A stretch of DNA of 64,000 nt from Acidobacteriota bacterium (GTDB lineage: Bacteria; Acidobacteriota; UBA890; WLXD01): the NCBI GenBank assembly GCA_965205505.1, contig CBDBHB010000008.1, forward strand, positions 544,001-608,000. The letters run 5' to 3'. Within the stretch, counting starts at the first letter, position 1, and every line of letters starts with the position of its first letter. This document shows positions 3,490-22,630 of this stretch, piece after piece. The translations under genes were made by a program, and so were the position numbers. The notes beneath the pieces were generated by a model. It searched no databases and was not told where the DNA came from. It saw nothing but the letters and a program-made list of their open reading frames with translations.

Positions 3490-3524
3490 ATCCTTATCCT
3501 CTGGCTTCACATCGTTAGTAACCA

Positions 3525-3702
3525 TGATATCCTTGTCCCGGTCGATCAGCTTGAGCAAGGCAGCCAGGTGCCGGTCGGTCGGTTCCAGCTCGTCGCCGGT
3601 TTTGATCGATCGCTCGATCCGCGCCTTCAGCGACCGGTCGCGAGTCGAGTTGACTTGCTGACCCCACGGGATCTGGTCGGCCGTGATCGGTGGCTCGCTC
3701 AT
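3525..3702 (-). pseudogene. Satellite ORF truncated at the junction with IS1595
   Basis: Start overlaps the stop of the 3699..4004 ORF. The last ~20 codons of the track ORF are antisense transposase sequence. Confidence 0.4.
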
Positions 3703-4004
3703 GACGCGCGCTCCCGGCGCACCTGGATCCAGCCCACAAGGTCATCCTCAGCGTCGTGGTAGGGCCACGTGTGCGCTGGCCTGCCGAGCTCGGGGTGGCG
3801 GCGGATGCCCAGACTCCGGGCCGTGAGGGCCTCCAGGACCGCCTCCTGCATGCATCCGGCGTGACAGTGCAACAGCACCTGCCCGTCGCGCTCTGTCGCG
3901 CTCAGACTCACGTTGCGGTCCTTGTGCGCCGGGCAACGGCACATGCCGCCATGTCCGCTGCATCGACCCGCGAGCGCGCGGACGATCTGCTCCATGCTGG
4001 CCAT
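3699..4004 (-). CDS. Primase-type zinc-finger N-terminal domain protein (possibly truncated)
   Basis: CRCPAHKDRNVSLS...VLLHCHAGC (CHC2-like zinc finger). Confidence 0.75.
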   Translation of the reverse strand: MASMEQIVRALAGRCSGHGGMCRCPAHKDRNVSLSATERDGQVLLHCHAGCMQEAVLEALTARSLGIRRHPELGRPAHTWPYHDAEDDLVGWIQVRRERAS

Positions 4005-4005
4005 G

Positions 4006-4233
4006 TCACGTTGACGACAGCGGGGACGGGGCTGGCTGATCGCCGCCCGGCAGGGCCGTCGGACGGCTCGCCAACCAGGCCTCGATGTCCGCCAGGCGCC
4101 AGGCTACGGCACGCCGGCCGATGCGCACCGGACGGGGAAACTCCCCCGCATCCATCGCAGCGTAGATCGCTGACCTGGAAAGTAGCGTGATCCGCTCAAC
4201 TTCAGGGCGTCGGATAAGTGTCGGTTGCATCAT
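4006..4233 (-). CDS. alpA: AlpA-family regulator/excisionase
   Basis: LIRRPEVERITLLSRSAIYAAMDAGEFPRPVRIGRRAVAW. Confidence 0.92.
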   Translation of the reverse strand: MMQPTLIRRPEVERITLLSRSAIYAAMDAGEFPRPVRIGRRAVAWRLADIEAWLASRPTALPGGDQPAPSPLSST

Positions 4234-4342
4234 TGGGAACCCTCCGGGTAGCTGTAGGATCCCCACTGTGCACGCCACGACTTGGCGTGTCATTGGGACA
4301 GGTTTTCGGAAACTCGTCCCTACACAGCGCGACGCGTAGGCG

Positions 4343-5008
4343 CTAGCGCTTGCTCTGCCAGATAGCGAGAACGCTGCTGTACTTGCTCACGCTTTGATTT
4401 CTGTCGGCGAGCACCCCGGCCACGATGTCGCAGGCAGATGCACGCTCGGTAAGTTCATTGCGCATCACATTCATGCCGCACTTTTTCAGGATGTAGACTG
4501 CCCATGCGATCACGTAGTTTCGCTCGGCCATCTTGGGCTCAGGGCCCCTGCTGCCTTCGCTGGCTCTGGGACGCTGTCCCCGCTCGGCCACCCATCTTTG
4601 CAGCGTTTGCCCAAGCGGATACTTGCCTCCTTTTTGCATGAGCACCCAATCCAGTACGTCCCAATGTAGTGCGGAGGTACGTGATCGTTCAGCGAAAAGA
4701 TCGACCACCTCCTCGCGCGGGGTGCCGTCCAGAGGGCCCAGAGACGAAGCGAGCATCCCTACGTAGTAGTCGCGAGCCCACTCCGGGTCATCCGACAGGT
4801 CCAGGTCCAGCCACAAGTGCACGAGGGCCCGCGCATCGTCGTCTGAAATGCGCTCTCCCTGCTCCGTGAATCGTGCCACGTGCTCGCGGTGTTTACGGTG
4901 AAACTCATCGTGCTGGGATTGGTCGTAGGCGGCACGCACAGGCGGTATGGGACTACAGAGCTTCAGCTTCAGTCGAACGGTCTGCCTCGGGCGCGGTTCC
5001 TCACCCAT
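4343..5008 (-). CDS. Hypothetical satellite protein with a putative C-terminal HTH
   Basis: ORF between int and alpA; C-terminus ERNYVIAWAV...SACDIVA...YSSVLAIW. Confidence 0.6.
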   Translation of the reverse strand: MGEEPRPRQTVRLKLKLCSPIPPVRAAYDQSQHDEFHRKHREHVARFTEQGERISDDDARALVHLWLDLDLSDDPEWARDYYVGMLASSLGPLDGTPREEVVDLFAERSRTSALHWDVLDWVLMQKGGKYPLGQTLQRWVAERGQRPRASEGSRGPEPKMAERNYVIAWAVYILKKCGMNVMRNELTERASACDIVAGVLADRNQSVSKYSSVLAIWQSKR

Positions 5009-5312
5009 GAGGCAGCACCGGCACGATGGTCTGGATCGGGGCGGGCAACCTGGAGTGCGGCCCGGGCCCACTGATCGATGGGGACAGCAGCATCAGGCCC
5101 AGGATGACGGCCGGAATCAGCGTCAGTGCACGGCCCGAAAGGTTGATCCTGGGCGAGCGGAGATCGCCCATCCGCACGTTGCCGAGCTCACCTCTGTCCA
5201 TATCATCTCTCCGTAGGCACGGGGGCGGTGGGGTAGACACGTCTTCAGGGTAGCGTGCGTGGCCGTGTGCCAACCCACTTCAGCAGGCAGGGAACCGACC
5301 CGGTACTGCTCC

Positions 5313-6566
5313 CTAGACAGGGCGCAGCATCGGCACCACCTTGCCGCCCTCAGCACTCAGGTAGGCGGCCCAGTCTTCCATCAGCTTCCGGCGCCGCTCC
5401 AGCAGGTCCGAGCGCGCATAGGCCGCCTCGGTCGGGTCGCGCACCGCATGCGCCAGCGCCGCCTCCATGACCGCCCGCGGTGCGTTGGTGCACTCCGCCG
5501 CCCAGTCCCGGAACGATGAGCGAAACCCGTGCGGTACCGCTTCAATACCCAGCTGCCGCAGCACCCGGGAAAGCGTTGCGTCCGCCAGCGGCCTGCCGGC
5601 CCGTGCGCCGGGAAACACCAGCCCCTCGCCATCCCTGAGCCCCCGCGCCTGGCGCAGGATCTCCATTGCCCGGCCCGATAGCGGTACCCGGTGCGCCCGG
5701 TTCGACTTCATGCGCTCGGGTGCAAGAGTCCACTCCCTCGCCTCCAGGTCCATCTCCTGCCAGGTAGCCAACCGCACCTCGCCGGAGCGGGCCGCCGTCA
5801 ACACCAGAAACTCCAGGGCCAGCTTCACCACCCCGGAGGCATCCGAAGCCCGTACCGCCTCGATCGCACCGTCCACCTCGGCATGCGGCAACGCCCGCAT
5901 ATGCTGTCGCCGCTTGCGGTGCCGTGGCAGCGCCTGGGTGATCGCCTCACCAGCCGGGTTGTCGCCACGGTACCCCTGCGCCATGGCCCACTTCATCACC
6001 GCACCGATGCGCGCCCGCACCCGCCGTGCGGTCTCGGCCTTGTCATGCCAGATCGGACCCAGTACCTCCAACACCTCGGCCGTCGTCACCTCCGACACCG
6101 GCATCTCACCGATGCGCCCGTACGCATAGGTGCGCAACTCCGTTTTCCATTGCGCCGCATACTTGGCGTTGCGCCACCCGGGGCGGTGCATCTCATACAC
6201 CTTGGCCGCTGCTTGCGCGAACGTCGGCATGCCCTCGGCCCGGCGCTTGTCTGTCAGCGGGTCACCGCCGGCACGGGCCAGCTTGCGGTTGGCAAATGCC
6301 ACCTCGCGCGCCTCCGACAGCGACACCAAGGGGTAGCCTCCGAGACCCAGTTCCCGGCGACGGCCCTGGATCACGATCCGCTGTACCCAGCTGCGCGCTC
6401 CGCTCGGGATCACGTTCAGGTACAGGCCGTGTCCATCGCAGTACCGGCCCGGCTTCATTACCGTGCGTACGAACGCCGCCGACAGGGCCCGCTCCGGGTG
6501 CTTGCCGCTCTTGCGCCGAGGGCTGGGTTTCGGTGCAGTTGCTTGCGCATCGGCGATATTCTGCAT
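5313..6566 (-). CDS. int: P4-type tyrosine integrase with an arm-DNA-binding domain
   Basis: DGHGLYL...LGGYPLVSLSEAR arm domain; catalytic motifs ARSGE, RMK, HGFRSSFRDW, LAH and AAY. Confidence 0.95.
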   Translation of the reverse strand: MQNIADAQATAPKPSPRRKSGKHPERALSAAFVRTVMKPGRYCDGHGLYLNVIPSGARSWVQRIVIQGRRRELGLGGYPLVSLSEAREVAFANRKLARAGGDPLTDKRRAEGMPTFAQAAAKVYEMHRPGWRNAKYAAQWKTELRTYAYGRIGEMPVSEVTTAEVLEVLGPIWHDKAETARRVRARIGAVMKWAMAQGYRGDNPAGEAITQALPRHRKRRQHMRALPHAEVDGAIEAVRASDASGVVKLALEFLVLTAARSGEVRLATWQEMDLEAREWTLAPERMKSNRAHRVPLSGRAMEILRQARGLRDGEGLVFPGARAGRPLADATLSRVLRQLGIEAVPHGFRSSFRDWAAECTNAPRAVMEAALAHAVRDPTEAAYARSDLLERRRKLMEDWAAYLSAEGGKVVPMLRPV

Positions 6567-6689: not shown

Positions 6690-7814
6690 ATGCACCGGAT
6701 CTGGATGATGGCAGAGGTACGCGCTGCCGTCAGGCGCACGCGGCTCACATGGGACGACGCGCTGCTCGACCACAACGTGTTCGGGCGCTTGGCGCAGATC
6801 GTGCCCGCGATCGTCATCTACTCCGGCATTGGTCTCGTGCCGGATATCGTCGAGCCCGCCGAAAGGGCCATCCACAACGTCGCGAGCGCTTACATGGTCG
6901 TCATGATCATGCTGACCCTGACCGCGACAATGTCGGCGGCTAACCAGATCTACGTGACCTTCCCGCTGGCGCGCCACCGACCGATCAAGGGCTTCGTCCA
7001 GCTCGCGCAGATCGCTGTATACGTACTCGGCGCGATCGTGGTGATCGGAATGCTGATCGACCGCTCGCCGGTGATCCTCCTGAGCGGCCTCGGCGCTATG
7101 ACGGCGGTGCTGTTGCTTATCTTCAAAGACACGCTGCTGTCGGTGGTGGCCAGCATTCAGCTCACGGCCCAAGACCTGGTGCGCGTCGGCGACTGGATCG
7201 AGGTGCCTCAGTTCGGCGCCGACGGCGACGTGGTCGACGTCGCGCTCTACACCGTAACGGTGCAGAACTGGGACAAGACGATCACGACGATCCCGACTCA
7301 CTGGATGATCTCCGATTCGTTCAAGAACTGGCGCAGCATGAGTGATTCCGGCGGACGGCGGATCAAGCGGTCGATCAACGTCGATGTCAACTCGATTCGC
7401 GTTCTGACCGATCGTGAAATGGAGCGCTTCAAGGGTTTTGCGTTGCTGAAGAACTACATCGAGGCCAAGGAGGCCGACCTCAAGACCTACAACGAGACCC
7501 TCGATGAGCCGGGTGAGGCAGGCATCAACCTACGGCGGCTGACGAATATCGGCACTTTCCGCGCGTACATCCGCAACTACCTGGAACATCATCCGAAGAT
7601 TCATCACCGCCTGACGCTGATCGTGCGCCAATTGCAGCCCGGCGCCGAAGGTGTGCCGATCGAGGTCTACGCGTTCACCAACGACACGAACTGGGTGGCC
7701 TATGAAGGCATCCAGGCCGACATCTTCGATCACATTTACACGATCGCGCCCGAGTTCGGCCTGCGCATCTATCAGAAACCCGCTGGCGCGGATCTGGCTG
7801 GGCTGCGGGCCTGA
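6690..7814 (+). CDS. ybdG: Mechanosensitive channel of the YbdG/MscM type, probably 5'-truncated
   Basis: LIFKDTLLS, GDWIEVPQFGADGDV, QNWDKTITTIP and SFKNWRSMSDSGGRRIKRS. The usual N-terminal helices are missing; the first codons come from the element end. Confidence 0.85.
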   Translation: MHRIWMMAEVRAAVRRTRLTWDDALLDHNVFGRLAQIVPAIVIYSGIGLVPDIVEPAERAIHNVASAYMVVMIMLTLTATMSAANQIYVTFPLARHRPIKGFVQLAQIAVYVLGAIVVIGMLIDRSPVILLSGLGAMTAVLLLIFKDTLLSVVASIQLTAQDLVRVGDWIEVPQFGADGDVVDVALYTVTVQNWDKTITTIPTHWMISDSFKNWRSMSDSGGRRIKRSINVDVNSIRVLTDREMERFKGFALLKNYIEAKEADLKTYNETLDEPGEAGINLRRLTNIGTFRAYIRNYLEHHPKIHHRLTLIVRQLQPGAEGVPIEVYAFTNDTNWVAYEGIQADIFDHIYTIAPEFGLRIYQKPAGADLAGLRA

Positions 7815-8063
7815 CCGTAGAAGGTCCTAGCAGGCCGAGACGCCAGTAGCCGTGGCCTCTGCCTTCACTCCTCCGATGCCATCTGCTCACGCCAGGGATC
7901 GTCAGGGTGCGCTATGCTCGTGCCCTGGCAGAGGGCCGTTTCGGAGCACTCAGACATTGTTTCCTTGGTGCTCGGATGGACACCGTTATGGTCACCAACG
8001 TGTTTTTTGAGCGACCCTGGGTGGCCTCGAAATCGACGCAAGCCCTTGATTTCAAGGAACGTA

Positions 8064-8147
8064 GCCGAGGTGGCGGAATTGGCAGACGCGCCGGACTCAA
8101 AATCCGGTGGGCTTACGCTCGTGAGGGTTCGAGTCCCTCCCTCGGTA
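8064..8147 (+). tRNA. tRNA-Leu (anticodon CAA)
   Basis: GCCGAGG/CCTCGGT acceptor stem, CCGGA-CTCAAAA-TCCGG anticodon arm, long variable arm, GAGGG-TTCGAGT-CCCTC T-arm. CCA is not encoded. Confidence 0.96.
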
Positions 8148-8919
8148 CTTTTGTATAATCAGCGACTTACAGACGATTAGGCAGCGGGCCTGTCGCCCCT
8201 GATTTCTCGTTTCGGACACCAAATCGGACACCTTCTGTGTCCTCGGATCCCGCTCAAGGAAGCGCAGCTCGGCCCCTAGAATACCGAAACTGGCAGAAAG
8301 CAGTATGAGGTCATCCGACGAGACACGGAGACCGCTCGTCACGATTTCGACTCGGATCACGTAGCGTGGGACGGTAGTGGCTTCGCGTTTACCAAGTACG
8401 GTGGCCCGGGCCGGCCTCCACTGCCGCTGGAGCAGACATATCCCACTCAAGGGCAGCCCGCTGATCAGCGGGCGCCGGTCCCTTTCGGAGTCATGCTCTC
8501 GGGCGGCAGAAGTCTGTCCGGGCGGACCCTTTGCTTCCAGGCCGGGAGTCTCACAGTCCCTTTTCTACTTGCCGTTACGAACCCATCACAACGCGATCGT
8601 GACTGCATGCGAGACAGAGGCAACATGGACCGCAAATCGCGTTCGTTGGTGGACTGGTCCAAGACCCTTGTACGCGCCGCCGATGGAGAGCAAGATCGTT
8701 AGGCTAAGCGCTCTCCGGACTTCAGCCACCCGAGTGCAGGTCAGCCTAGTCCCAGCCCCGCGGCGATCTGAGCAACCAGACCTCCGATCGAGGACACATC
8801 GCCAGAAACGCGCGCTAAGGAAGACCGGGTGAAACACGAGGACGCGGTGGAGGCCTGCCACAGCCTTCGGCGTCTCGCGTACAAGGGAGGTCAAGGGAAA
8901 AGCTCTGGAACAGGGAGTC

Positions 8920-8938
8920 TCAAATCCTGGCCCCGCTA
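8920..8938 (+). repeat. Relic 3' end of an initiator tRNA-Met (att scar)
   Basis: TCAAATCCTGGCCCCGCTA resembles a tRNA-fMet T-loop and acceptor strand; a hairpin follows directly. Confidence 0.55.
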
Positions 8939-8942
8939 GTCT

Positions 8943-8992
8943 AAAGCCCCGGTGACGTACGCTCTGTTCCCCGTGCTCGTCACCGGGGCTTT
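8943..8992. terminator. Terminator-like hairpin, possibly bidirectional
   Basis: Perfect 15-bp inverted repeat AAAGCCCCGGTGACG / CGTCACCGGGGCTTT. Confidence 0.7.
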
Positions 8993-9081
8993 CTGCGTCC
9001 AGAGGCCGAAGGTCCTCCCCGAGTGCTCCGGGTGCTCGTGCGGCGAGTTCCGGGTCTCACTTCAGCCGGTTTTGAACCGCC

Positions 9082-10554
9082 GTGTGTAAACTACCGTCCA
9101 TGGAGAGTATTTGGTCTCGATGGAGCACGGTCGCAACGTTACTGGGGGCTGGCGCGACGGTGGGCGCTCTTTACTACATCATGGCCCAGTCTGCACCTGG
9201 GTGGCTTCGCACGGTTGTTCTAATCCTATCGATATCGCTCATTGTCGGCGGGGTTCTCACGGCGCTCTATCTCTCTTGGGATCCTGTTCAGGCGGCGGTG
9301 AAAGTCGTCGCAGGAAACTGGCCAGAACGCGTGTTTTGGTCCGGTGTCGCGTTCGTCACGACAGGCGGTTTCCTGCTGGTTGTCTACTACGGTGTGATCC
9401 GTCCCGTAACGAGTTCTTCCAACTCACCGGCGCCACGCACCGTGTCCGATGCCGAGAACGAAAACCGCGGATCTGAGGACCAGCCTGCAACCGTCCCGGC
9501 GGATCCAGCGCCCGAGGAAGTCCTGGAAATCGATCAAGATCGTGTCGAGGCGTTTGACCAAACCGTTTTCGCAGGTACCGGCGACGCGGCGTACGACGGA
9601 GATGGAGGACCCGCAGTTCAAGCCGATCTGTGGGGGCCGCGCGGAATCGATGTTGATGCGGGCGGCAACGTCTATTTCGCGGCGGAAGGGAATCACGCGA
9701 TTCGGAGAGTGGACACCGACGGCATCATCACAACGATCGCCGGCAACGGAACAGGTGGCTGCGGAAAAGCCGAAGGGAGGGCGCAAGAGGTCCAACTACT
9801 AGCGCCGAAGGACGTCGCCGTTGACAGTCACGGCTTCGCCTTCATCGCCGACCCGAACTGCAACCGAGTGCTCCGGGTCGACGCGAACGGGACGATTACC
9901 AAGGTTGCGGGTACCAGCACGGCAGGCTTCAGCGGGGACGGAGGTCCAGCCACGGCAGCCCAGCTGGACGGTCCGTACGGTGTGGCGATCGATCACCAAG
10001 GGGCCGTGTACATAGCGGATCTCCACAATCAGCGGATCCGGCGAGTCGATCCCTCGGGCAGAATCTCGACAGTCGCAGGAACCGGCACCGCCGGATTCTC
10101 TGGAGACGGCAAGCAGGCTACCGACGCGACCCTCAACGACCCTCTCCGAGTCGCGGTGGACGCTGACGGCAGTATCTACATCACCGACCGTGGCAACCAG
10201 CGCATTCGCAGGGTCGACGCTGCAGGCATCATCGAGACCGTCGCCGGGAACGGCTCCCGAGGATTCTCTGGCGATGGGGGTTCGGCAATTCTCGCGCAAC
10301 TCAATGATCCCTCGTACGTCGAGCCCCTTGAGGAAGGCGCTTTCCTGATCGCCGATCATCTGAACAACCGGGTCCGACATGTCGACTCGTCGGGCCTGAT
10401 CACCACCTATCTCGGCGGCGAGCCGGATGAGGGGCACGAGGGGGCTACAGCTGTGCGCTTTGATGGAGTAATGGGCGTGGCCGTTGCCCCCGCCGGCAAC
10501 ATCTTCGTTTCCGAGAGCAATCGCCATCGAATCCGAAGACTCTCGGCTCAATGA
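9082..10554 (+). CDS. Membrane-anchored NHL-repeat beta-propeller protein
   Basis: Three N-terminal hydrophobic segments; repeated AGTGTAGFSGDGG...P.GVAVD..G.IYIAD..N.RIRRV. Start could be the ATG at 9100. Confidence 0.9.
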   Translation: MCKLPSMESIWSRWSTVATLLGAGATVGALYYIMAQSAPGWLRTVVLILSISLIVGGVLTALYLSWDPVQAAVKVVAGNWPERVFWSGVAFVTTGGFLLVVYYGVIRPVTSSSNSPAPRTVSDAENENRGSEDQPATVPADPAPEEVLEIDQDRVEAFDQTVFAGTGDAAYDGDGGPAVQADLWGPRGIDVDAGGNVYFAAEGNHAIRRVDTDGIITTIAGNGTGGCGKAEGRAQEVQLLAPKDVAVDSHGFAFIADPNCNRVLRVDANGTITKVAGTSTAGFSGDGGPATAAQLDGPYGVAIDHQGAVYIADLHNQRIRRVDPSGRISTVAGTGTAGFSGDGKQATDATLNDPLRVAVDADGSIYITDRGNQRIRRVDAAGIIETVAGNGSRGFSGDGGSAILAQLNDPSYVEPLEEGAFLIADHLNNRVRHVDSSGLITTYLGGEPDEGHEGATAVRFDGVMGVAVAPAGNIFVSESNRHRIRRLSAQ

Positions 10555-10695
10555 CTGACGCTGTGACGATCGCACGGACGATCCACCCGCCGACGGCGCA
10601 AGCCAGTCTGTCGGCGAGCACGCCATACCGCTTCGAGTGGTCAGCTTGCTCCAGGACGTCTTTCGGTATTGCGCAAGTATATGCCGCGACGTCCT

Positions 10696-11037
10696 CTAGT
10701 ACTCGTTCCTGAGCATCATCACGCCGTCAACACAGTAGAACGAGAATTCCTGCATTGGGAAGTCGGTGTACGGAATCGACTGCTCCACGATGACGGGTTC
10801 GCCAGTGTCTTCTTTAGCACACACGACAGCGCTCCGGTCTTCCTCGACCGCAAGCTCCCAAAGCTGGAATGGAACTCTCCTGAGCTGCGGCTGATAGCTT
10901 CCCACCAAATCAATGAGCCAGTAGCACTCCGCCTGATCAGCCAAGTACTTTATCCCATCGGTAAACAGCAGTCCCGTGTAGTTCCGGTAGTACTGCGTCG
11001 TTCCAATGAAGCCAGCTAGCTCATCCTCCAGTCCCAT
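10696..11037 (-). CDS. DUF6876-like protein
   Basis: FIGTTQYYR...TDGIKYLADQAECYWLID...QSIPYTDFP...MMLRNEY. Confidence 0.8.
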   Translation of the reverse strand: MGLEDELAGFIGTTQYYRNYTGLLFTDGIKYLADQAECYWLIDLVGSYQPQLRRVPFQLWELAVEEDRSAVVCAKEDTGEPVIVEQSIPYTDFPMQEFSFYCVDGVMMLRNEY

Positions 11038-11102
11038 AACTGCTGCAGAGCTCTTGGACGTTATAAAGCCCACGCCGTCAACTAGTACCTGTGGGAGAAG
11101 CT

Positions 11103-11255
11103 TCAAGACGCAATTACATCGGCTTCGTCCTCTTGCTGCTGCACGTGGTGTTCGATTGCCGAGATAATCTGTTGTCGAATGCTCACTCCTGTGCGTTCGC
11201 GTATTCGGTACATGGCACAAATCAGTGGCGGCGGGATGACCAGGCTGTACGTCAT
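11103..11255 (-). CDS. Small ribbon-helix-helix-like protein
   Basis: MTYSLVIP...MYRIRERTGVSIRQQIISAIEHH; GGAGG RBS upstream. Confidence 0.55.
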   Translation of the reverse strand: MTYSLVIPPPLICAMYRIRERTGVSIRQQIISAIEHHVQQQEDEADVIAS

Positions 11256-11359
11256 CTTCCTCCCTCCACAGTCGCAAGCTCCTGCTCGTGCAGGTACGCC
11301 ACGTAGACTTCCCGTACATCCTGCCAAAACGTCTGCCACATGAGCGGATCTCCTCGACG

Positions 11360-11587
11360 TTATAAGTAACTCTGGAAGACGAACCTAGTGCCCATCTTAA
11401 AGGCACTTCGCTTCTCTGCTCTCGTAATCAACAACTTCACCTTCAAGCCTAGTTCATCTGTTGGCGCTGCAATAACAAGCTGGCTCTCCGTTGGCTTTAC
11501 CTCGCACGTCCGCTGATCACATCTACGGAATCTTCTCCAAACTTTTTCTTCTTCTTTGCGGATTCTCTCCACTATTTCCTTCTTCAT
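11360..11587 (-). CDS. Hypothetical protein
   Basis: 75-aa charged ORF preceded by GAGGTGA SD. Confidence 0.55.
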   Translation of the reverse strand: MKKEIVERIRKEEEKVWRRFRRCDQRTCEVKPTESQLVIAAPTDELGLKVKLLITRAEKRSAFKMGTRFVFQSYL

Positions 11588-12564
11588 TACCTTTCACCTC
11601 TGTTGTATTCGCTTTCCGACCCCAAAAGGGTGGGCCTCTTCGGGCCTTCTCCGACCAAGAGGGTCCGCCTGCCGATATGTCTTTAGGCCGTTAGGCCGAC
11701 CGGAGAGCAGCGGGGAGCGTCGTGGAGGGGAAAGACTTACGTGCAGGCGGAGAATCTATAACCAGCTAGACAAACACTTGGGCAGCCTGACTCGTTGGGA
11801 GCCTTTTGTGCGGTAGAACTCGGCATCATCACTGGAGCTGCGTGACGTTCCGTGTAGACACATGCAGACTGCGTCAGGACAGAAACTGGCGGGAGCCATA
11901 TCACCCTTCGCGGCTCTAGGCCATATGCTTCAAACCGAACCCGCAGAGAGCAATAGCCGCGACCCTCATGCCCCTTCGTTCCGACAGAGAGAAGATCATG
12001 TCCCGAAACAATAACCACGAGATTCGGTTCGAAGATCAGAACCGCGAAGGCAGAAATGCCTCCCGTTGGCAGCAGGAGTGTGCCGCAAGAGACGCGGTCG
12101 TTTTCCACGCCGTGAGACCGCGCGCCTAGGACGCTCCGAGCAAGCGGGCGTCAGCAGACACCGTTGGTAAATTCGATCTACAACGGCCTTCTCTGCTTGA
12201 CTCGGTCCATTTCAAGTTAACAGATGAAGCTTATGATGAAACAAAGACCTGTATACAAAATTGAAGAAAAACCACATTATCAAACAGAAACGCTATGGGC
12301 TGATAGTTATACTTAATGTTTCCTGCTTCTTTCATGTAATATACAGTGAACTTGACAATAGTTATTACGTAACTACTATTATTCTATTGTTAGAGACGAG
12401 ACTGATTTCCCACCTCACCACTACGCCACCCGTCCCCCTGGGGTGTTATTAGATGTATTTAAGTTTTGTAATGCAGATTAGTAGCTAGTCTGTCGTCAAT
12501 ATCATCGAACCTCTACGCTTTTTCTAGTTGATAGAAATCGTTACTCATGATGGCAACAGATAAC

Positions 12565-12765
12565 TCATCCTTTAGCTGCTGCCGGCCTTTGCACGCTCTC
12601 ACTGAACCGTGACGCCTGGAGAATCTCAACTCCAATCAGGTCGCCGTTCTCATCCAATTCGACATTGACCCCTGGGACAATCTCTTCAAAACTCTCCTGC
12701 TTGCCCTCTTTCACTAGTATGAAGAGAGAGTCAGATTCTTCGTCGTAGTTGTATTGCTTACTCAT
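12565..12765 (-). CDS. DUF2283-family putative antitoxin
   Basis: YNYDEESDSLFI...VELDENGDLIGVEILQAS; overlaps the end of the upstream gene. Confidence 0.85.
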   Translation of the reverse strand: MSKQYNYDEESDSLFILVKEGKQESFEEIVPGVNVELDENGDLIGVEILQASRFSESVQRPAAAKG

Positions 12766-13048
12766 TCTTCGTCCACCTCTTGTTAGCAATTCGGTTGATC
12801 ATCTGTTCTTCCCGTATCGGATGTATCGTTATAATTTCGACAGTATCATTCTTGTTGTAGGCAATCATCATCTGTCGCATTTTGCTGTTGTATTCCAAGC
12901 GCTTGATAGCGATAAGCGTCCGCTCGACCGTATCAAAGAACTTCTGGTCGGGCTCTTCCAAGACGAGCCTGGGATACTCACGCGGTATCCTCCGGGCCTT
13001 CAATCTCAGCTCTAGATGGCTCGTGTAAACAACTCTTGCCCTTTGCAT
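12758..13048 (-). CDS. DUF4258/RelE-like putative toxin
   Basis: VYTSHLELRLKARRIP...IITIHP...RIANKRW; coupled to DUF2283. Confidence 0.7.
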   Translation of the reverse strand: MQRARVVYTSHLELRLKARRIPREYPRLVLEEPDQKFFDTVERTLIAIKRLEYNSKMRQMMIAYNKNDTVEIITIHPIREEQMINRIANKRWTKNE

Positions 13049-13068
13049 CTCTTGTAGATCGCTGAGTC

Positions 13069-13084
13069 TATAAAGCTATCGATT
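13069..13084 (-). promoter_or_regulatory. Putative archaeal-type BRE/TATA promoter of a leaderless TA transcript
   Basis: Minus strand CGATAGC-TTTATA, 20 nt before the ATG; no SD. Confidence 0.45.
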
Positions 13085-13181
13085 GCGAAAATCAGAGCGA
13101 GCGTCGTTCCAGTAGCTCCATTCTACTACCCGAACAGGCCGGGCCGGCCGGGCGTCACTGGACTTCCACTGAAGACGGGAC

Positions 13182-14507
13182 TTAGGATCTGTTCTGTACC
13201 AAGCCCTTCCCCACCTCAACCTTCGGAAACGCCACGTGTAGAGGACACCGCACTCGTCCTTTCAACGCAACAACGGCCTCTCCAACCTCGAGTAGATCGA
13301 TATAACCACGCTCCTCGTCATCCAGATTCAGACAACGAGCCATATCATCAACATCGTCGCCATTTCCTAGGTTGAAAACAATCTTGCAGTAGGTGTTCGC
13401 CTTGATGGAGTTGCTGAGCTTCGTCGGCTCCTGATCTATCACAACAACAGCTTCTCCAAATTCACGAATCTGACGCAGGCTCGTTTCGAGAATCGTCTCA
13501 GCCCCTTCCGCGCGTTCCTTCCGCCGAGACAGCACATGATGCCCTTCTTCGATGACGAGAGCGTGCTTGAAGACTTCGCGATTTCCTTCGTGTTTCCTGA
13601 ACTCGTAGAGCCACAGAATCACAGCCTCTGTGAGGAACACCTTATCTACGTCTGACAGGACGTCGAGTTCGAGCACGGCCGGAGCGTTGAGAAGCTGCTC
13701 GTCAAGCGCAGAATCAGTGTTCACCACCGGACCAAGGCCGTGGCGGAAGCACAGGCTTTCGAAAACGCGCACTGCGGATGCCTTCCACAGTTGCATCCTT
13801 CCCTGCGCGCGCTTCTTCAGCACACGATAGCGCACCAACAAGAACGTCGGCGTCCCCGTTGATGATTCATCATAGAACCCGCATTCGTCATACACGGTGT
13901 CGATGGCTTCCCTGAGCAAATACTCAACTCCTTCTCCCACGAAGTAGGCATGCTTGATAACATCGACTAGTTTCATCAGCCATTCGCCCGGCGCGGTGCC
14001 GGGAGGCGGAATCACCGGATTGAACTTGAATGGCTCAACATCGCCGCCAGGCCTATAGACACGTAGCTCCTTGAACTCCGGAAGCTGGCGAAGATCGCGG
14101 TAGTTGCGCTTCCAGTCAAATACCATGAATGGCTTCTTGTTCTTCTGGAACTCTCTCAGCATGTGGAAGACGAGATTCGTCTTTCCCGTGCCTGTCATCC
14201 CAACAATGAGCATGTGCTTGATCCAGTCGTCCTCCCGCATGCCGAAGCCACAGTATGTCTTTTCAGGCGGATAGCGGACGGTGCCGAGAACATACTTTCC
14301 ATAGCAGAGCGAAGGATGCGGCGGATCTAGCAGAATTCTCTTGCGATAGTCCTTCGCGAGCTTCTGAAACAGAAGAACGTCAACTAGCTCACTAGCGTGG
14401 CTACGCTCCTCGCCTTCCCCAGACAGATAGAGCAGCCAACCTTTGTCGCCTCTTCCCTTCCCCAGGGGAGCGAGCTTCCGCAGTTTCTCCTCAGTGCTCT
14501 CTCTCAT
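13182..14507 (-). CDS. HerA/VirB4/TraD-superfamily ATPase (DUF87-like), possibly 3'-truncated
   Basis: Walker A GMTGTGKT, Walker B LVIEEGHH, IREFGEAVVVIDQEP. Confidence 0.85.
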   Translation of the reverse strand: MRESTEEKLRKLAPLGKGRGDKGWLLYLSGEGEERSHASELVDVLLFQKLAKDYRKRILLDPPHPSLCYGKYVLGTVRYPPEKTYCGFGMREDDWIKHMLIVGMTGTGKTNLVFHMLREFQKNKKPFMVFDWKRNYRDLRQLPEFKELRVYRPGGDVEPFKFNPVIPPPGTAPGEWLMKLVDVIKHAYFVGEGVEYLLREAIDTVYDECGFYDESSTGTPTFLLVRYRVLKKRAQGRMQLWKASAVRVFESLCFRHGLGPVVNTDSALDEQLLNAPAVLELDVLSDVDKVFLTEAVILWLYEFRKHEGNREVFKHALVIEEGHHVLSRRKERAEGAETILETSLRQIREFGEAVVVIDQEPTKLSNSIKANTYCKIVFNLGNGDDVDDMARCLNLDDEERGYIDLLEVGEAVVALKGRVRCPLHVAFPKVEVGKGLVQNRS

Positions 14508-14796
14508 TGTTCTGGAACAGCCGCTTGTGTAGAGCGAGCACGTCTTTGAAGCACTTGATTTCTTCGAGTAGCTTGAGCCTCTTCGTGTCGTTCAACTTCT
14601 TGATGAGTTCCTCGGATTCCCGTTCCAAACGCTCGATTTCCTCATCATGAAGTTGTTCCCTGTTACGGATTAGGTAGCTGATTACATCTCTCAGCTCAGC
14701 CCCGCTCGCCGTCACCTTGAGTAGCTCGTCGATGGCGTGCCTTCTTTGCTTATCGTTGTTTGTAACGTCCTTCCTTGACGTTGCTTTGTCTTCCAT
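14491..14796 (-). CDS. Small coiled-coil protein coupled to the ATPase
   Basis: 101-aa E/K/L-rich ORF overlapping the ATPase start. Confidence 0.65.
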   Translation of the reverse strand: MEDKATSRKDVTNNDKQRRHAIDELLKVTASGAELRDVISYLIRNREQLHDEEIERLERESEELIKKLNDTKRLKLLEEIKCFKDVLALHKRLFQNNEREH

Positions 14797-14989
14797 CTTG
14801 TATCAGGAATCGATAGAGAATCTCCGTTCTTAAGCTTTATAGTGCATCCTGCACTTCTCAGGGCCATTGAAACGCGTTAGCTGACCATTTGCAGGCGTGC
14901 CAGGCCTTCGGCTTCGATCGACTTGAAATTGGGTGAAGCCGTTATATAGTCCCCCCGCATTTACAACGACAGGAAAAGGGGATCACCTA

Positions 14990-15437
14990 ATGACCGAGGT
15001 AACGCTCACAAGGCCAACGAAACCTATGATGGAGGCTGTCAACGCTTCTTATCGCCGGCAACCAACAAGCGGTGGATGGGTTTGTGAAGCAGCACAAGCT
15101 AGACCGCCAGCTATTAGACAGATACGTGGCGAAGCGTGCGGGTAAGTCTTACGGCCTTACGCGTCAGAAGCGAGGCAAGAAGAAAGCCACGAAGAAGAGA
15201 GCGAAGAAAGCGCCGCCTCACGCTGAGGTACAAGATGTCCTGACGATGCTCGACCGCCGAACCAAGGTAGCTACGCTGCTAAGGTTGCAGGCCAAGGTAG
15301 CGGACTTAATCGCTCAGAAGGACGCGGAAGAGGTCGCCGCCATGCAGAGCACTCTCAAAAATCTCGAGAAGTTTCGCGAGCAGGCAGACGCGGCCGCCAA
15401 GAAGGTGAAGGACGCAGAAGCTCTACTAGGGATGTGA
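14990..15437 (+). pseudogene. Lys/Ala-rich hypothetical protein with a single-base frameshift at ~15047
   Basis: TTGAAA-N16-TATAGT promoter and AAGGGG RBS before ATG 14990. MTEVTL...AVNA joins LIAGNQQAVDGFVKQH in another frame. Confidence 0.55.
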
Positions 15438-15610
15438 GTCCCGACCGTCCAGCGTCCATCAAGCGCACACCCTACTTCTTTAACGTCGACTACTACCCGC
15501 GGACCGAGTACGAAGAATCATCTCCGGTACAGCGAAGGACGCGGGAATGCTCGTGATCTGCCATAGGCTGCTGGCCACGAGCGCGGCGCGCGAGGAGTTG
15601 GCCGATTACA

Positions 15611-16690
15611 GGCGTTGGTGCATGGCTCCTGATCTCAGTGCATCATCGTGGCAAGGTCCCCGATCTGGAGTTGCCACCCATGAAGTACCCGAAACGGAGC
15701 CAATACAAGTACGCGAAGTCTCGATATCGGATTCGCAATTGGCCTGAGTACGAGGCGGGCCTACAAAGACGAGGCAACGTTACGGTATGGTTTTCCGCCG
15801 ATGCCCTCGACTCCTGGTGGGCTCCACCTAGCGGGAAACCCGGCGGCCAACGCACCTACGCGGACATCGCAATCGAGGCAGCTCTCACGATCCGCATGGT
15901 CTTCCACCTTCCGCTCCGGCAGACCGAGGGCTTCCTGCGTTCTCTCGCAGACATGCTGCACGTGGAGATCCCTATTCCCGACCATACGCCTCTGTCCCGA
16001 CGGCTCAAGAAGCTTGGCGAGATTCCATTTCGTGCGGTCGCGAGCGATCAACCTATCCACCTGCTCATCGACAGTACGGGGCTCCGGATTCATGTCGGCC
16101 ATCTGCGCAAGCCACCGAAGCACAGAGCCTGGCGGAAGCTGCACCTGGCGGTCGACGCGAGTACGGGCGAGATCGTTGCCTCGGATCTGACCGGTCGTCG
16201 GACGCGTGACTGTGCTCGAGTTCCTGTGTTACTCGAACAGATCGACGATCCGGTGGCGTCCATCTCTGCAGACGGTGCCTACGACACCGAGGGGGTCTAC
16301 GAAGCGGCTCAAGCAAGGGGCGACGGGCGAGCAGTCAGAGTGGTCATTCCACCTGGACGCAACGCCCGGTTGCGTCCAAGACCGTCGGATGCGTTGAAGG
16401 AGAGAAACCGGAACGTTTGCTCCATCAGCAGACTCGGCCGACGCGAGTGGCACACGCGATCCGGCTACAGCAGCGCGCCATGGTCGAGAACGCGATCTAT
16501 CGATACAAGACGATCATCGGCCGAGACTTGAGGAGTCGCACGTTGGTGGGCCAACGCGTGGAGGTGCGACTTGCGTGCAGGATCCTCAATACGATGGCTC
16601 GTCTCGGGATGCCCGACAGCTACCGAGCGGCGTGATTCCATCTCGGACGAGGAACGAACTGTCCTGAGCTCCGAGCCATGCACCAACGCC
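15611..16690 (+). mobile_element. IS5-family (IS903-group-like) insertion sequence
   Basis: Perfect 18-bp terminal IRs GGCGTTGGTGCATGGCTC / GAGCCATGCACCAACGCC; no target duplication. Confidence 0.92.
15680..16635 (+). pseudogene. tnp: IS5-family transposase with a frameshift at ~16470
   Basis: YRIRNWPEYEAGLQRRG, LIDSTGL, WRKLHLAVD, ADGAYD; RAMVENAIYRYK continues in another frame. Confidence 0.9.
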
Positions 16691-16958
16691 CGTTCGGTCT
16701 GGAGTGAGGCCATGGTAACGCTCACTCCGCTGCGATATTACCGGGGATCGTGCTGACAGTCCGTCTTGTCGACTGGCAGGCTTCAACAACCTCTTGTCAG
16801 CACCGAGTTACTGAGAATAAGACGTGATACTAACCGAGGGGGCAGGTCACTTCGATCGATCGTGCCGCTCGGCGCAGCCGCTCAGGAAGTCGTCTACTTG
16901 GTTCGCCACCCCGAGAGGTGCAGGGTGGGAGGATCCGCCCGAAAGACGTCCCTCTTAC

Positions 16959-18179
16959 TTATTGACCCACTTTAAACTTAGCAGCTTCTCCAGATCCGCC
17001 GGTTGCATCACCCTCAGTGTAGGAATGTGCTCCGGCTCCTGCGAGCTTTCCGCCTTCCACGATAAGATATTCTTCTCGTATTTGCCTATCATCAAACCAG
17101 CATTCCAAGATTTCCTTGACGCCCGCTGCGTATCGAGCTTGAGCCGCCAGCGAAGTTCCGGATGTATGTGGCGTCATTGCATGGTTTGGCATTGTTCGCC
17201 AAGGGTGATCTCTTGGTGCTGGCTGTGGAAACCAAACATCCCCGGCATAACCGGCTAATTGGCCGCTCTCAAGTGCTCTTGCAACTGCATTACGATCACA
17301 GATCTTTCCCCGAGCAGTATTAACAAGATAAGCTCCACGCTTCATCTTGCCAATCATCTCGTCATCAAAGAGGTGTTCCGTCTCGGGATGAAGTGGACAA
17401 TTAACCGACACAACGTCGCAGACCTCGACCATAGACTCAACGCTATCGTGAACGGTTAAATCAAGTTCCTCTTCAACCTCTGGTGGGAGTCTATGTTTAT
17501 CAAAGTAATGGAGTTCTACATCGAAAGGCTTCATACGTCTTAGAACTGCTGAACCAATTCGACCTGCTCCTCCAACGATACCCACTCGCATTCCTTCAAC
17601 GTCATAAGACCTTGATACGCAATCAGCGATATTCCATCCTCCTTTGATAACCCAATTATATGAGGGAATGTAATTTCGAACGAGCGTCAAGATCATCATC
17701 ACAACATGCTCGGATACACTGATGCTGTTACAATAAGTGACCTCCGCCACCGTGATATCGTTATCGATAGCGGCTTGTAAGTCCACATGATCTGAACCAA
17801 TACCTGCTGTAATCGCCAGTTTCAATTTGGGCGAGTTAGCAACTCTTTCCGCAGTTATATACGCAGGCCAAAACGGTTGTGAGATAACAATGTCAGCATC
17901 AACGATTTCTTTTTCGAAGACGGAATCCGGACCGTCTTTATCAGCGGTAACAACAAATCGATGGCCGCGGCCTTCGACGAAGTTCCGTAGACGAAGTTCG
18001 CCAGAGACACATCCAAGAAGATCCCCAGGATGGAAATCTATCGCGCTCGGTGATGGCATTGATTGCCCATCAGGATAATGAGGTAGATTCGGGATATCGC
18101 GGCGCGCATATTGTGGCGGATATCCATCTACGGGATCATCATATAAGACACAGACGATCTTCAGGTTGTCTTTGCCCAT
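16959..18179 (-). CDS. fdh: NAD-dependent formate dehydrogenase
   Basis: SQPFWPAY, AGIGSDHVDL, GAGRIG, NTARG, YAGDVWFPQPAP and MTPHTSG. Confidence 0.96.
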   Translation of the reverse strand: MGKDNLKIVCVLYDDPVDGYPPQYARRDIPNLPHYPDGQSMPSPSAIDFHPGDLLGCVSGELRLRNFVEGRGHRFVVTADKDGPDSVFEKEIVDADIVISQPFWPAYITAERVANSPKLKLAITAGIGSDHVDLQAAIDNDITVAEVTYCNSISVSEHVVMMILTLVRNYIPSYNWVIKGGWNIADCVSRSYDVEGMRVGIVGGAGRIGSAVLRRMKPFDVELHYFDKHRLPPEVEEELDLTVHDSVESMVEVCDVVSVNCPLHPETEHLFDDEMIGKMKRGAYLVNTARGKICDRNAVARALESGQLAGYAGDVWFPQPAPRDHPWRTMPNHAMTPHTSGTSLAAQARYAAGVKEILECWFDDRQIREEYLIVEGGKLAGAGAHSYTEGDATGGSGEAAKFKVGQ

Positions 18180-18325
18180 TTTGCTCCACCTGGTTGTCTA
18201 ATCCGATCATTCCCCATGTGACATCTTGGCAAGCCCAGCGCTTGCCCCGAAGGACGTCAAACTACCGCCTTCCCCCGACAAGGCTGCCCTCTGTCGCGGG
18301 AGCTGTCTGCGTGGCCGCGGAACCG

Positions 18326-18470
18326 AGAGGTGGACCCCATCCTTCGGACAGGTTTTCGTCACCGCTAGGGTGGAATCTGGGTTGATGATTCAGGCAGCCT
18401 CCTCGTCAGTGTACGCGTCATCGGGCGTCAGGTCACCCAGCGACGAGTAGGGGCGCCGATATTGACGCCG
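18326..18470 (-). mobile_element. IS3-family right-end remnant
   Basis: OrfB C-terminus RRPYSSLGDLTPDDAY...AA* followed by the end CTGTCCGAAGGATGGGGTCCACCTCT. Confidence 0.7.
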
Positions 18471-19362: not shown

Positions 19363-20532
19363 CTAGCGGCTCGCCCCGACAGTGTCCCCTTCCGGCGCCG
19401 GTTGTAAAGCCAGTCGAACCGGTTGCCGCTTCGGGCCCCAGGAGCCGGGGGCCGATTCGAAAACACCGGCGCACGGGGTGCCGCACGCGGCACAAGCGCC
19501 GGCGGTCGGGTTCGCGCCCCCGTCTCCCTGCACATCCAGGTTCCACGCGGTCAGCAGGTACCAGTCGCGACCGATGAGGCGCTCCCCGCAAGCGTGACTA
19601 TAGGTGCTGCCCCCTTGTTCATCGTGGACGTTGCCGGTGTAGGCGTAGCGGACACCGTTGCTCACGGCGATCTCGCGGGCCCGCACCAGCGTCGCGGCCG
19701 GGGTCCTGGGTCGGTCCATCATCTTGTAATCGGGATGGAAGGCGGTGAAGTGGACGGGCACCGCGGGGCCGAGCTTGTCGACGATCCAGGCGCTCATCTC
19801 GTCGAGCTCCGCATCGGAGTCGTTGAGGCCGGGAATCAAGAGGTTGGTGATCTCGAACCAGACGTCGGTCTCGTGGGCGAGGTACTCGAGCGTCTCTAGC
19901 ACCGGGGCCAGCTCCGACAGCGTCACGCTCTTGTAGAACTCCTCGGTAAACGCTTTCAGGTCGACGTTGGCCGCGTCCATGTGGGCATAGAACTCGGCCC
20001 TGGGTTCGGTGCACACGTAGCCGGCTGTCACCGCCACCGTTTTGATTCCCCTCTCGCGGCAGGCATCGGCGACGTCGATCGCATACTCGTGAAAGATCAC
20101 GGGATCGTTGTAGGTGAAGGCTATGCTGCGCGAGCCCGATTCCTCGGCGGCGCGAGCCATCGCCTCGGGCGTCGCCTGGTCGGCGAGCGTATCGAACTCC
20201 CGTGACTTGCTGATATCCCAGTTCTGGCAGAATCGGCATGCGAGGTTGCAACCGGCCGTGCCAAACGACAGGACAGGGGTTCCGGGCAGGAAGTGGTTCA
20301 GTGGCTTCTTCTCGATCGGATCAACGCAAAAACCGCTCGAGCGACCGTAGCTCGTGAGAACGATCTGGTCCCCGTCACTGGCGCGCACGAAGCAGTGGCC
20401 CTGCTGCCCCTCGCGCAGCCGGCAGTAGCGCGGGCACAGATCGCACTGGATGCGGCCGTCTTCGAGCTGGTGCCAAAAGCGGCCGGGGTAGACATCGGGC
20501 GCCGTGGAGATTTGTCCCGAAAGAGCGGTCAT
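19363..20532 (-). CDS. amrS: AmmeMemoRadiSam system radical SAM enzyme
   Basis: CDLCPRYC, DPIEKKPLNHF, GCNLACRFCQNW, AFTYNDP, NVDLK and HFTAFHPDY. Confidence 0.93.
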   Translation of the reverse strand: MTALSGQISTAPDVYPGRFWHQLEDGRIQCDLCPRYCRLREGQQGHCFVRASDGDQIVLTSYGRSSGFCVDPIEKKPLNHFLPGTPVLSFGTAGCNLACRFCQNWDISKSREFDTLADQATPEAMARAAEESGSRSIAFTYNDPVIFHEYAIDVADACRERGIKTVAVTAGYVCTEPRAEFYAHMDAANVDLKAFTEEFYKSVTLSELAPVLETLEYLAHETDVWFEITNLLIPGLNDSDAELDEMSAWIVDKLGPAVPVHFTAFHPDYKMMDRPRTPAATLVRAREIAVSNGVRYAYTGNVHDEQGGSTYSHACGERLIGRDWYLLTAWNLDVQGDGGANPTAGACAACGTPCAGVFESAPGSWGPKRQPVRLALQPAPEGDTVGASR

Positions 20533-22540: not shown

Positions 22541-22630
22541 TCCCAGCAGCCCAACCGGGTAGTGCCTAGTGAACTGCGTCCTTCTTCGTGCCAACCGTCG
22601 GGTCGAGCTCGATGACTACGGTCCCTCCCG

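Follow-up and report, generated by a model that had tools for sequence, protein, structure and literature searches.

HerA-like ATPases of integrated elements are known from archaeal 'dark matter' islands, as arCOG00280, and from bacteria, where they are annotated as DUF87 'ATP-binding proteins'. The function of arCOG00280-type genes has been taken no further than 'possible DNA pumping ATPase or helicase' (PMC4158269; papers cited by PMC number are cited for the part of their text that was available). Here we describe a 4.2-kb module, at positions 10696-14845 of a 64,000-nt stretch of an Acidobacteriota genome (the window), whose seven open reading frames (ORFs) include such an ATPase. We propose that the module is probably an integrase-less piece of a small element, plasmid-like and integrative or mobilisable, from a bacterial lineage: a strain-variable mosaic of three cassettes next to tRNA-Leu(CAA). 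Like the arCOG00280 proteins, the ATPase has the FtsK-HerA fold and motifs, and its family is frequently linked to integrases in small elements. It differs in that its nearest relatives are bacterial and in that its coiled-coil partner and the ArdC and DUF6876 companions are not mentioned in the available text of PMC4158269; we liken the two by description only.

HerA-type cores are also found in defence complexes, namely Sir2-HerA (Nezha), DUF4297-HerA, and MAD7-MAD8. The module resembles these in its ATPase core and fold, in having mad8 as the best PADLOC match, in the defence neighbours of some relatives, and in the nuclease-like fusion of the family's long forms. It differs in that its seven ORFs include no Sir2, DUF4297, NurA, or other mad genes, the partner is a 101-aa coiled-coil protein, and there is no nuclease. 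MADS requires its mad genes together in one operon (PMC13662399).

Among the ATPases of conjugation (TrwB/VirD4, VirB4, and actinomycete TraB), the similarity lies in the P-loop, which matches TrwB_AAD_bind and TraG, in the C-terminal domain of VirB4, and in the ArdC, NikA-like, and RadC companions. In contrast to those systems, neither the ATPase nor its partner has a transmembrane segment, no relaxase or type IV secretion system genes are present, and conjugation models score far under their cut-offs. The module also contains a small overlapping gene pair like known DUF4258/DUF2283 cassettes. The DUF2283 gene is above cut-off and the upstream gene is a divergent branch; unlike the known cassettes, the upstream protein misses the DUF4258 model, and the toxin and antitoxin roles are putative. 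DUF2283 has been treated as a transcription-activator domain (FseA) of an integrative and conjugative element (PMC4755241). Archaeal cryptic integrated elements with Orc1/Cdc6 have been described (PMC6563490), and pT26-2 plasmids carry a HerA/VirB4-like ATPase in a membrane-rich transfer module (PMC6972569); as far as the available texts go, the gene sets of both are unlike the module's. In the collection of papers searched, we found nothing on DUF6876, on DUF2283 together with DUF4258, or joining Acidobacteriota, integrative mobile elements, and HerA (the supplementary tables of PMC4158269 and PMC6563490 were outside the search).

A foreign, strain-variable stretch

The module is the most atypical 4-kb stretch of its genome (5.98 Mb in 9 contigs). 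Its GC content is 51.4%, versus a genome mean of 64.3% (standard deviation 1.7 across segments of the same size), and only 0.017% of 5947 such segments, or about one, reach this value. Its tetranucleotide distance to the genome is 0.531, versus 0.162 ± 0.027 for 302 genome segments, whose maximum is 0.35. In 1-kb steps, GC is 0.46-0.54 in the four intervals of 11001-15000, 0.58-0.62 immediately outside, and 0.60-0.69 over most of the window, and this is the window's single clear composition trough. GC at third codon positions (GC3) is 0.53-0.70 in the seven module genes versus 0.83-0.87 in three native genes. This is horizontally acquired, foreign DNA. A preliminary description of the sequence had already noted GC visibly below that of the flanks, and the tetranucleotide profile agrees with it. 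Nearby genes have foreign-looking GC3 as well (an NHL-repeat gene, 0.67; a 121-aa ORF, 0.68; an IS5 transposase, 0.66; a formate dehydrogenase gene, 0.40), so the region of about 8.2-18.4 kb, downstream of tRNA-Leu(CAA) (8064-8148), is atypical throughout.

Logan contigs from two sequencing runs bridge both junctions of the module with zero differences (X1, 9254-15584; X2, 8121-15654); both come from a single sample, and the assembly may have been made from it. X4, a run of a different study, contains zero-difference pieces of both module and flanks, in each case at a similarly low depth, with no junction-bridging contig and some bins uncovered. In a run from a third study (X5), a 2958-nt contig matches 9300-10572 with six differences and then continues into unrelated sequence, and 10853-15607 has essentially no coverage. 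So, a close strain lacks the module, and the variable DNA starts at about 10573, which is 18 nt after the NHL gene. The ATPase, the toxin family, and DUF6876 are also missing from all four genomes of the host's genus that were available for comparison. The preliminary description had put the junctions near 10690 and 14860; the contigs of the two runs do bridge both, but the left edge lies at about 10573 and not at 10690.

We found no remnant of an integrase, ArdC, or RadC in six-frame segments of 10400-15700 (using hidden Markov models, or HMMs, of the ORF clusters described below), no recombinase family among the module's ORFs (Pfam), and no direct repeat of at least 10 nt between 10540-10720 and 14790-15620. 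The nearest integrase (5313-6566) is beyond MscS and the tRNA. Because there is neither an integrase nor a flanking repeat, we regard this copy as an integrase-less fragment.

The ATPase, its partner, and their elements

The ATPase matches DUF87 (PF01935) at 37.4 bits (cut-off 23.2, residues 97-154) and TrwB_AAD_bind at 28.6 bits over residues 97-135 only; TraG models were matched as well. Its Walker A motif, GMTGTGKT, is invariant across 23 sequences. An AlphaFold2 model (23 homologues; predicted local distance difference test score, or pLDDT, of 85.1) matched 174 PDB chains in Foldseek at E ≤ 1e-3. These were headed by HerA (4d2i from S. solfataricus, E = 1e-14), the C-terminal domain of DndH (template modelling scores of 0.64/0.75), and the C-terminal domain of VirB4 (0.61/0.71), with the Sir2-HerA and DUF4297-HerA complexes lower and TrwB at rank 50. 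Sequence profiles link the ATPase to solved HerA-type chains over its C-terminal third only, and every curated NCBIfam model is far under its cut-off: the HerA equivalogs score 27.5-29.2 bits, in the C-terminal part only, versus cut-offs of 800-970, and TraD scores 21.5 bits versus 521. Since the fold matches HerA and VirB4 while the curated models score so low, the ATPase is a member of the FtsK-HerA superfamily outside every named subfamily. It is soluble, with no membrane anchor (averaged over 19 aa, hydropathy peaks at 1.21 and nowhere comes to 1.6), and in all seven proteins the hydrophobic segments are too short to form a membrane helix. No relaxase or type IV secretion family was found in the region (Pfam, NCBIfam).

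A metagenome scan yielded 374 ATPase relatives, from which we kept 80 loci; with nine further loci added (n = 89), all their ORFs were sorted into clusters. In most loci, a coiled-coil gene is directly upstream of the ATPase (cluster cc3 in 46 of the 89, cc15 in 11, and cc16 in 10, one of them the window's own). The HMMs of all three clusters match the 101-aa protein of the module (cc16, 6e-30; cc3, 6e-7; cc15, 1.4e-4), so these are one partner family and one conserved two-gene module. tblastn also placed homologues of the 101-aa protein immediately upstream of the ATPase in nine related loci. Altogether, the small coiled-coil protein and the ATPase are a conserved pair in about 65 related loci. 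Searches of Pfam, NCBIfam, PADLOC, and PHROGs placed the partner in no family, and its description as a coiled coil rests on composition (45% charged residues, no proline, and one glycine in 101 aa).

The pair occurs in three architectures. In the first, which is the window's group, a short ATPase and cc16 are followed by ArdC (ArdcN, 8e-31, plus a zincin peptidase domain); further along are RadC, a Cys-rich ORF, and a small repeated ORF, together with a small protein weakly resembling NikA, another coiled-coil gene, and a tyrosine integrase. The second, which is very AT-rich, combines a short ATPase and cc15 with methylases and further conserved ORFs. The third has an ATPase of 650-760 aa with cc3, a 119-aa ORF, an integrase, and, in seven loci, Orc1/Cdc6. 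The C-terminal extension of these long forms has a PD-(D/E)xK-like motif, with a weak match to restriction endonucleases. In the seven loci (L055, L060, L067, L075, L082, L083, and L090), the long ATPase is fused to a stretch resembling a winged helix-turn-helix and to the PD-(D/E)xK-like domain, and its partners at the same locus are an initiator of the Orc1/Cdc6 type (Cdc6_lid, Cdc6_C) and integrases. Long-form copies with an integrase are also present at native GC in two genomes from the host's phylum, G153 (of the host's family) and G165.

ArdC is an anti-restriction protein, and transferable DNA in bacteria typically carries companions of the ArdC, RadC, and NikA-like kinds. The order cc16, ATPase, ArdC is found in L016 and L017; in L013, ArdC also follows the ATPase, and the cc16 gene overlaps the called ATPase ORF. 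L016 (63% identity) adjoins a sigma-54 NtrC-type regulator (2e-115), a hybrid histidine kinase, and HamA/HamB of Hachiman; L013 adjoins BrxA/BrxB of BREX and a GmrSD-like gene; and L017 adjoins NuoL and a Ppl/mad3-like gene. The Hachiman and BREX genes beside these loci, which are the closest low-GC relatives, look complete.

In L021 and L022, the order is integrase, cc3, NikA-like, c30, Cys-rich, DUF6876, and ATPase, and the ATPase pair belongs to a set of only about eight element genes. The DUF6876 gene directly upstream of the ATPase is 61% identical to the window's copy in L021 and 62% in L022. Because DUF6876 adjoins the ATPase there, both ends of the window's module come from the same kind of element. 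The window's DUF6876 protein itself scores above the cut-off of its model (PF21781, 125.6 bits versus 27, E = 1.3e-36, model positions 3-117 of 117). Among plasmids, 99 records gave a DUF6876 match, and the 10 genera among the matches listed (90 records) are all bacterial. It was absent from the 14 control genomes, four of which are archaeal.

If our proposal is correct, then the first cassette, the translationally coupled coiled-coil and ATPase genes, would be the hallmark of the element family. The ATPase would form a ring translocase, and the coiled-coil protein would be an adaptor that recruits it to the DNA of the element, where it would serve in transfer, replication, or resolution. We favor a ring that moves or processes DNA because of the fixed synteny with integrase, NikA-like protein, ArdC, RadC, and DUF6876, and because the elements in L021 and L022 are so small. 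The second cassette, a DUF4258-like protein with a nuclease fold as the putative toxin and its DUF2283 partner, may stabilise the DNA by acting as an addiction pair or a regulatory one. The third, with a 75-aa ORF, a 50-aa ORF, and DUF6876, would consist of accessory plasmid-type genes. The integrase may have been lost from the window's copy or may never have been there.

Where the module comes from, and alternative explanations

The host is a bacterium that resembles Acidobacteriota: its genome has a bacterial small-subunit rRNA gene, and the best named matches of its native AmmeMemoRadiSam (radical-SAM) gene are from Acidobacteria, Acidobacteriota, and Thermoanaerobaculia (74-77%). For the ATPase, we found 458 relatives in a large protein collection, and the best 120 are 57-72% identical. 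Among those 120, three are named by organism and one more through a cluster member. These are Acidobacteria bacterium AH-259-D05 (in the cluster of the 72% match), an Acidobacteria metagenome-assembled genome (MAG; 69%), a MAG from Thermodesulfobacteriota (60%), and, on a 2.3-kb contig, one from Methanosarcinales (58%). A pattern search of species-representative genomes found two long-form relatives only, from a Gemmatimonadetes MAG and a Latescibacterota MAG (41-43% identity). In a quick maximum-likelihood tree of 82 ATPases, the window's copy is in a four-row clade with both Acidobacteria proteins (SH-aLRT support 90), which is nested in a seven-row clade (support 95). The short-form group has 22 rows, with several unresolved branches at its base, and the Methanosarcinales sequence is among these. 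The patterns used gave no relatives of the ATPase or the toxin-like gene in viral contigs, and a phage collection gave two distant matches (25% identity). Plasmid matches of the ATPase are all under 30% identity, and one of them, on an Embleya plasmid, is uninformative.

The ATPase tree, the plasmid hosts of DUF6876, and the bacterial flanks of close relatives together argue against an archaeal origin of the backbone (the coiled-coil gene, the ATPase, and DUF6876). We believe that it is a piece of a family of plasmid-like integrative or mobilisable elements with bacterial relatives in the host's phylum. The preliminary description had seen a fragment of an archaeal integrative or mobilisable element, and if contiguous a recent inter-domain transfer. 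A foreign mobile-element fragment it is, but for the backbone an archaeal source finds no support, with the ATPase in an Acidobacteria clade and DUF6876 on bacterial plasmids. Nor does the recent inter-domain transfer, given that the ATPase clusters with Acidobacteria and that close relatives have bacterial flanks. The best hits of the backbone are bacterial; the toxin-like gene is the exception. On the other hand, the suggestion of a poorly described element type was apt, as no library names the type and the coiled-coil partner is in none of the four. A residue of archaeal links persists in the basal Methanosarcinales ATPase and in the Orc1/Cdc6 genes of the seven more distant loci.

The toxin-like gene probably has a different history. 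Its 96-aa product matches no Pfam family and misses the DUF4258 model (PF14076). Its six word-sharing relatives are 54-63% identical, and the one that is named is from a Nanoarchaeota MAG (61%). A profile search found 306 representative clusters; among the ten best, one has a named member, a 'DUF4258 domain-containing protein' from an ANME-2c Methanosarcinales archaeon. So, both of the named relatives are archaeal. When 106 relatives found by profile were scanned, 19 matched DUF4258, 5 PBECR2, and 4 PBECR3, which makes this gene a divergent nuclease-like protein of the DUF4258/BECR type. The earlier 'DUF4258-like' call thus stands through its relatives (including the one named in UniRef), but not through the protein itself. 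Its AlphaFold2 model has a pLDDT of 70.7 and no Foldseek match in the PDB at E ≤ 1e-3. It has no plasmid match. The DUF2283 partner (PF10049, 55.7 bits versus a cut-off of 23, E = 5.7e-15) has look-alike clusters from Bacteria and Archaea mixed, and the DNA around the pair is the most AT-rich in the module. Small cassettes of this sort are known to be acquired separately from pools common to archaea, and the toxin-like pair was probably acquired in this way.

Several points weigh against our proposal. The word 'bacterial' rests on a handful of labels and on the flanks of a few loci, and one of the four named ATPase relatives is archaeal; the label is thin because metagenome contigs carry no taxonomy. 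The three cassettes are rare in the host's phylum: among 301 genomes, the ATPase has a match in 8 (counting the host and G024), the toxin family in 2, and DUF6876 in 3, each including the host. G024 enters only this tally; ORFs of its locus L007 were in the clustering pool, but none of our claims depends on them. Both named relatives of the toxin-like gene are archaeal, as noted above. The common integrase type is present in only 5 of the 17 loci with at least 4 kb on each side, so the ATPase pair is not strictly tied to it. Ring formation, DNA translocation, and binding of the coiled-coil protein are properties that we infer for this pair; a complex prediction for the ATPase and its partner scored 0.00, which, without controls, is evidence neither way. 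The mad8 match, the defence islands beside three close relatives, and the promoter-like signals, all discussed below, also count here.

A more far-reaching possibility, which we put forward tentatively, is that the pair is the mark of a family of small, plasmid-like integrative elements not described before, which may occur in both domains and has the three architectures above, and that the ATPase ring is the elements' own motor for DNA movement or replication. The window would then hold an integrase-less derivative with a toxin-like cassette from an archaeal pool.

Of the other explanations, the one to be taken seriously, though we think it rather unlikely, is that the coiled-coil/ATPase pair (perhaps along with the toxin-like pair) is an anti-phage defence cassette in a variable hotspot, with a HerA-type ring that senses or processes invading DNA as in Sir2-HerA, DUF4297-HerA, and MAD7-MAD8. 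The best PADLOC match of the ATPase is mad8 (3.8e-15, residues 97-419), and eight HerA defence models come next, but no other mad model matches any of the seven ORFs, and they include no Sir2, DUF4297, or NurA partner (Pfam, PADLOC). The structural neighbours include Sir2/HerA, DUF4297-HerA, and DndH, but the HerA equivalogs are missed by a wide margin (27-29 bits versus 800-970). The PD-(D/E)xK-like domain of the long forms gives an ATPase-nuclease layout like that of MAD7-MAD8 (PMC13662399), but the window's form has no nuclease. Three close relatives are in defence islands (L016 with Hachiman, L013 with BREX and the GmrSD-like gene, and L017 with the Ppl/mad3-like gene), but the operon partner in relatives is ArdC, which counters restriction and is typical of transferred DNA. 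Similarly, the module's presence in some strains and absence from others and the scarcity of the integrase would fit a defence cassette, but the fixed synteny with integrase, NikA-like protein, RadC, and DUF6876 would not.

It is very unlikely that the whole module came recently from archaea, as an integrative element passed from one domain to the other. In favor of such a transfer, few genes are commoner in archaeal integrated islands than HerA-like helicases (PMC4158269). The only named relatives of the toxin-like gene, from the Nanoarchaeota MAG and the ANME-2c archaeon, fit such a transfer, as does the 58%-identical ATPase of the Methanosarcinales MAG, but that ATPase is basal, more distant, and on a 2.3-kb MAG contig, while the window's ATPase groups with Acidobacteria. 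Orc1/Cdc6 is limited to the distant long-form group, which is also found without it in genomes of the host's phylum. DUF6876 was found here in bacteria only (on plasmids, and in none of the four archaeal controls), the flanks of close relatives are bacterial, and the ArdC, RadC, and NikA-like companions point the same way.

The best remaining point for an archaeal reading is the placement of TATA-like boxes. As the preliminary description had reported, such motifs precede starts without a Shine-Dalgarno sequence: there are six TATA-like sites on the minus strand of 10573-15071, and three of these, at 26, 29-30, and 45 nt before the ATG, precede the three first genes that lack a Shine-Dalgarno sequence. 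We estimate that this placement would occur by chance at about 1e-3, which takes no account of AT-rich intergenic DNA. A scan for the sigma-70 consensus found no sites on the coding strand and four on the other strand, versus 2.7 ± 1.8 from shuffles. But AT-rich boxes at such distances can equally be read as -10 elements of bacteria, followed by short leaders, and strong Shine-Dalgarno sequences of the GGAGG type stand before the internal genes.

Finally, an assembly chimera or contaminant, which the extreme composition and the absence of flanking repeats might suggest, is hardly credible, as X1 and X2 (from one sample, maybe the assembly's source) span the junctions without a difference and X4 has zero-difference pieces of module and flanks at similar low depth.

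Other features and the surrounding hotspot

Table 1. Features of the module and its left edge (positions in the window; strand left empty for non-coding features).
Feature	Position	Strand	Basis and remarks
Left edge of strain-variable DNA; 8-bp inverted repeat (10653-10695) after the DUF6876 stop	10573-10695		Contig of run X5; sequence reading
113-aa DUF6876 protein	10696-11037	-	Pfam; start without Shine-Dalgarno, TTTATAA 29-30 nt upstream
50-aa ORF	11103-11255	-	ORF and upstream sequence; GGAGG Shine-Dalgarno; upstream GGAGGGAGGAAG
75-aa ORF	11360-11587	-	ORF and upstream sequence; GAGGTGA Shine-Dalgarno
Conserved non-coding motif, common to one related element (L025:1875-1945)	11668-11742		blastn and alignment
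AT-rich non-coding spacer, 33% GC	12201-12400		200-bp GC profile
66-aa DUF2283 protein, putative antitoxin or regulator	12565-12765	-	Pfam; ATG overlaps the upstream gene's stop (ATGA)
96-aa DUF4258-like (BECR-fold nuclease-like) putative toxin	12758-13048	-	Profiles of relatives; start without Shine-Dalgarno, TTTATA 26 nt upstream
441-aa soluble ATPase from the FtsK-HerA superfamily (HerA/VirB4/DndH-like fold), short form without nuclease domain	13182-14507	-	Pfam, PADLOC, AlphaFold2 model, Foldseek
101-aa charged helical, coiled-coil-like partner	14491-14796	-	ORF; stop overlaps the ATPase start by 17 nt

The gene map (Table 1) agrees in most respects with the preliminary description, which had all genes on the minus strand (seven of seven), an AT-rich gap, the GAGGTGA Shine-Dalgarno sequence, a HerA/VirB4-like ATPase (borne out by DUF87 and the top Foldseek matches), DUF2283 (8e-15), and DUF6876 (1.3e-36). 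One exception is the 50-aa ORF, which had been called a ribbon-helix-helix protein. It matches no ribbon-helix-helix model and no Pfam family at E ≤ 1, and a 78-aa form has none either, so the call is unconfirmed. The 75-aa ORF has no Pfam family, which brings the ORFs without one to four of seven (101, 96, 75, and 50 aa). By tblastn, the 89 loci contain no counterpart of the toxin-like gene, DUF2283, or the 75-aa and 50-aa ORFs.

The gap at 11588-12564 has no tblastx match among 99 loci and, in the host genome, matches only itself; a 123-aa ORF within it has no Pfam family. Across 7500-17500, Rfam found only the tRNA-Leu at E ≤ 1, and nothing in the AT-rich gap or in what had been described as a structured gap. 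The motif in this gap is identical to the core of the L025 motif at 42 of 47 positions (blastn E = 4e-10), and the alignment lengthens to about 75 nt. It is GC-rich, non-coding, and single-copy in the genome, while the L025 element is 37% GC, and hairpin inserts differ between the copies. A shared RNA fold is unconvincing (z = -3.1 on one strand of the window, -0.2 to -0.4 for L025), and viral contigs contain no exact match to the 47-75-nt motif. Its role could be that of an origin, a transfer origin, or an attachment site.

The 3' ~60 nt of tRNA-Leu(CAA) (8091-8150) are directly repeated twice downstream, at 23445-23506 and 28580-28642. These repeats look like old attachment-site scars, and the interval holds native genes. 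We considered these half-copies as island ends and ruled them out because of a native gene at 19363-20532 (GC3 of 0.83, conserved across the order) and a different arrangement in G118, which is from the same genus: there, the second of the copies is 45 kb off, on the opposite side of the tRNA and beside tRNA-Met.

Upstream of the tRNA is a second atypical patch (2001-6566; GC of 0.50 at 2001-3000), which holds a fragment of an IS1595-type transposase (2926-3489) and an integrase of the P4 type that has an arm-binding domain (5313-6566). Downstream of the module is an IS5-family insertion sequence (15608-16693) with 21-nt terminal inverted repeats and no obvious target duplication. Contigs from all four runs include internally deleted forms, like miniature inverted-repeat transposable elements, that join 15759 to 16659, and contigs from three runs (X1, X2, and X4) join 15761 to 16472. 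The NAD-dependent formate dehydrogenase gene (16959-18179; GC 0.48, GC3 0.40, NCBIfam 690 bits) is bracketed by ~74-nt repeats (16776-16849 and 18326-18400) that have dozens of copies genome-wide; the 1.65-kb unit (16776-18422) has at least three near-full copies in G118, at 94-96% identity. An N-terminal fragment of a Ser/Thr kinase (22569-23114) resembles the start of a full kinase-PD40 gene (28909-31563), and several fragments of this kind follow the tRNA-Leu of G118 (L097) on its downstream side, which suggests that the hotspot has been rearranged repeatedly.

For the host genome, then, the module is ordinary decayed mobile DNA in a hotspot beside a tRNA, and its backbone shows no jump between domains. 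The toxin-like gene illustrates how bacterial elements come to contain small cassettes whose relatives are archaeal, a pattern that can mislead a reading from sequence alone. The two-gene module of coiled-coil protein and ATPase recurs in hundreds of environmental contigs, in three fixed architectures, and may deserve a description of its own.

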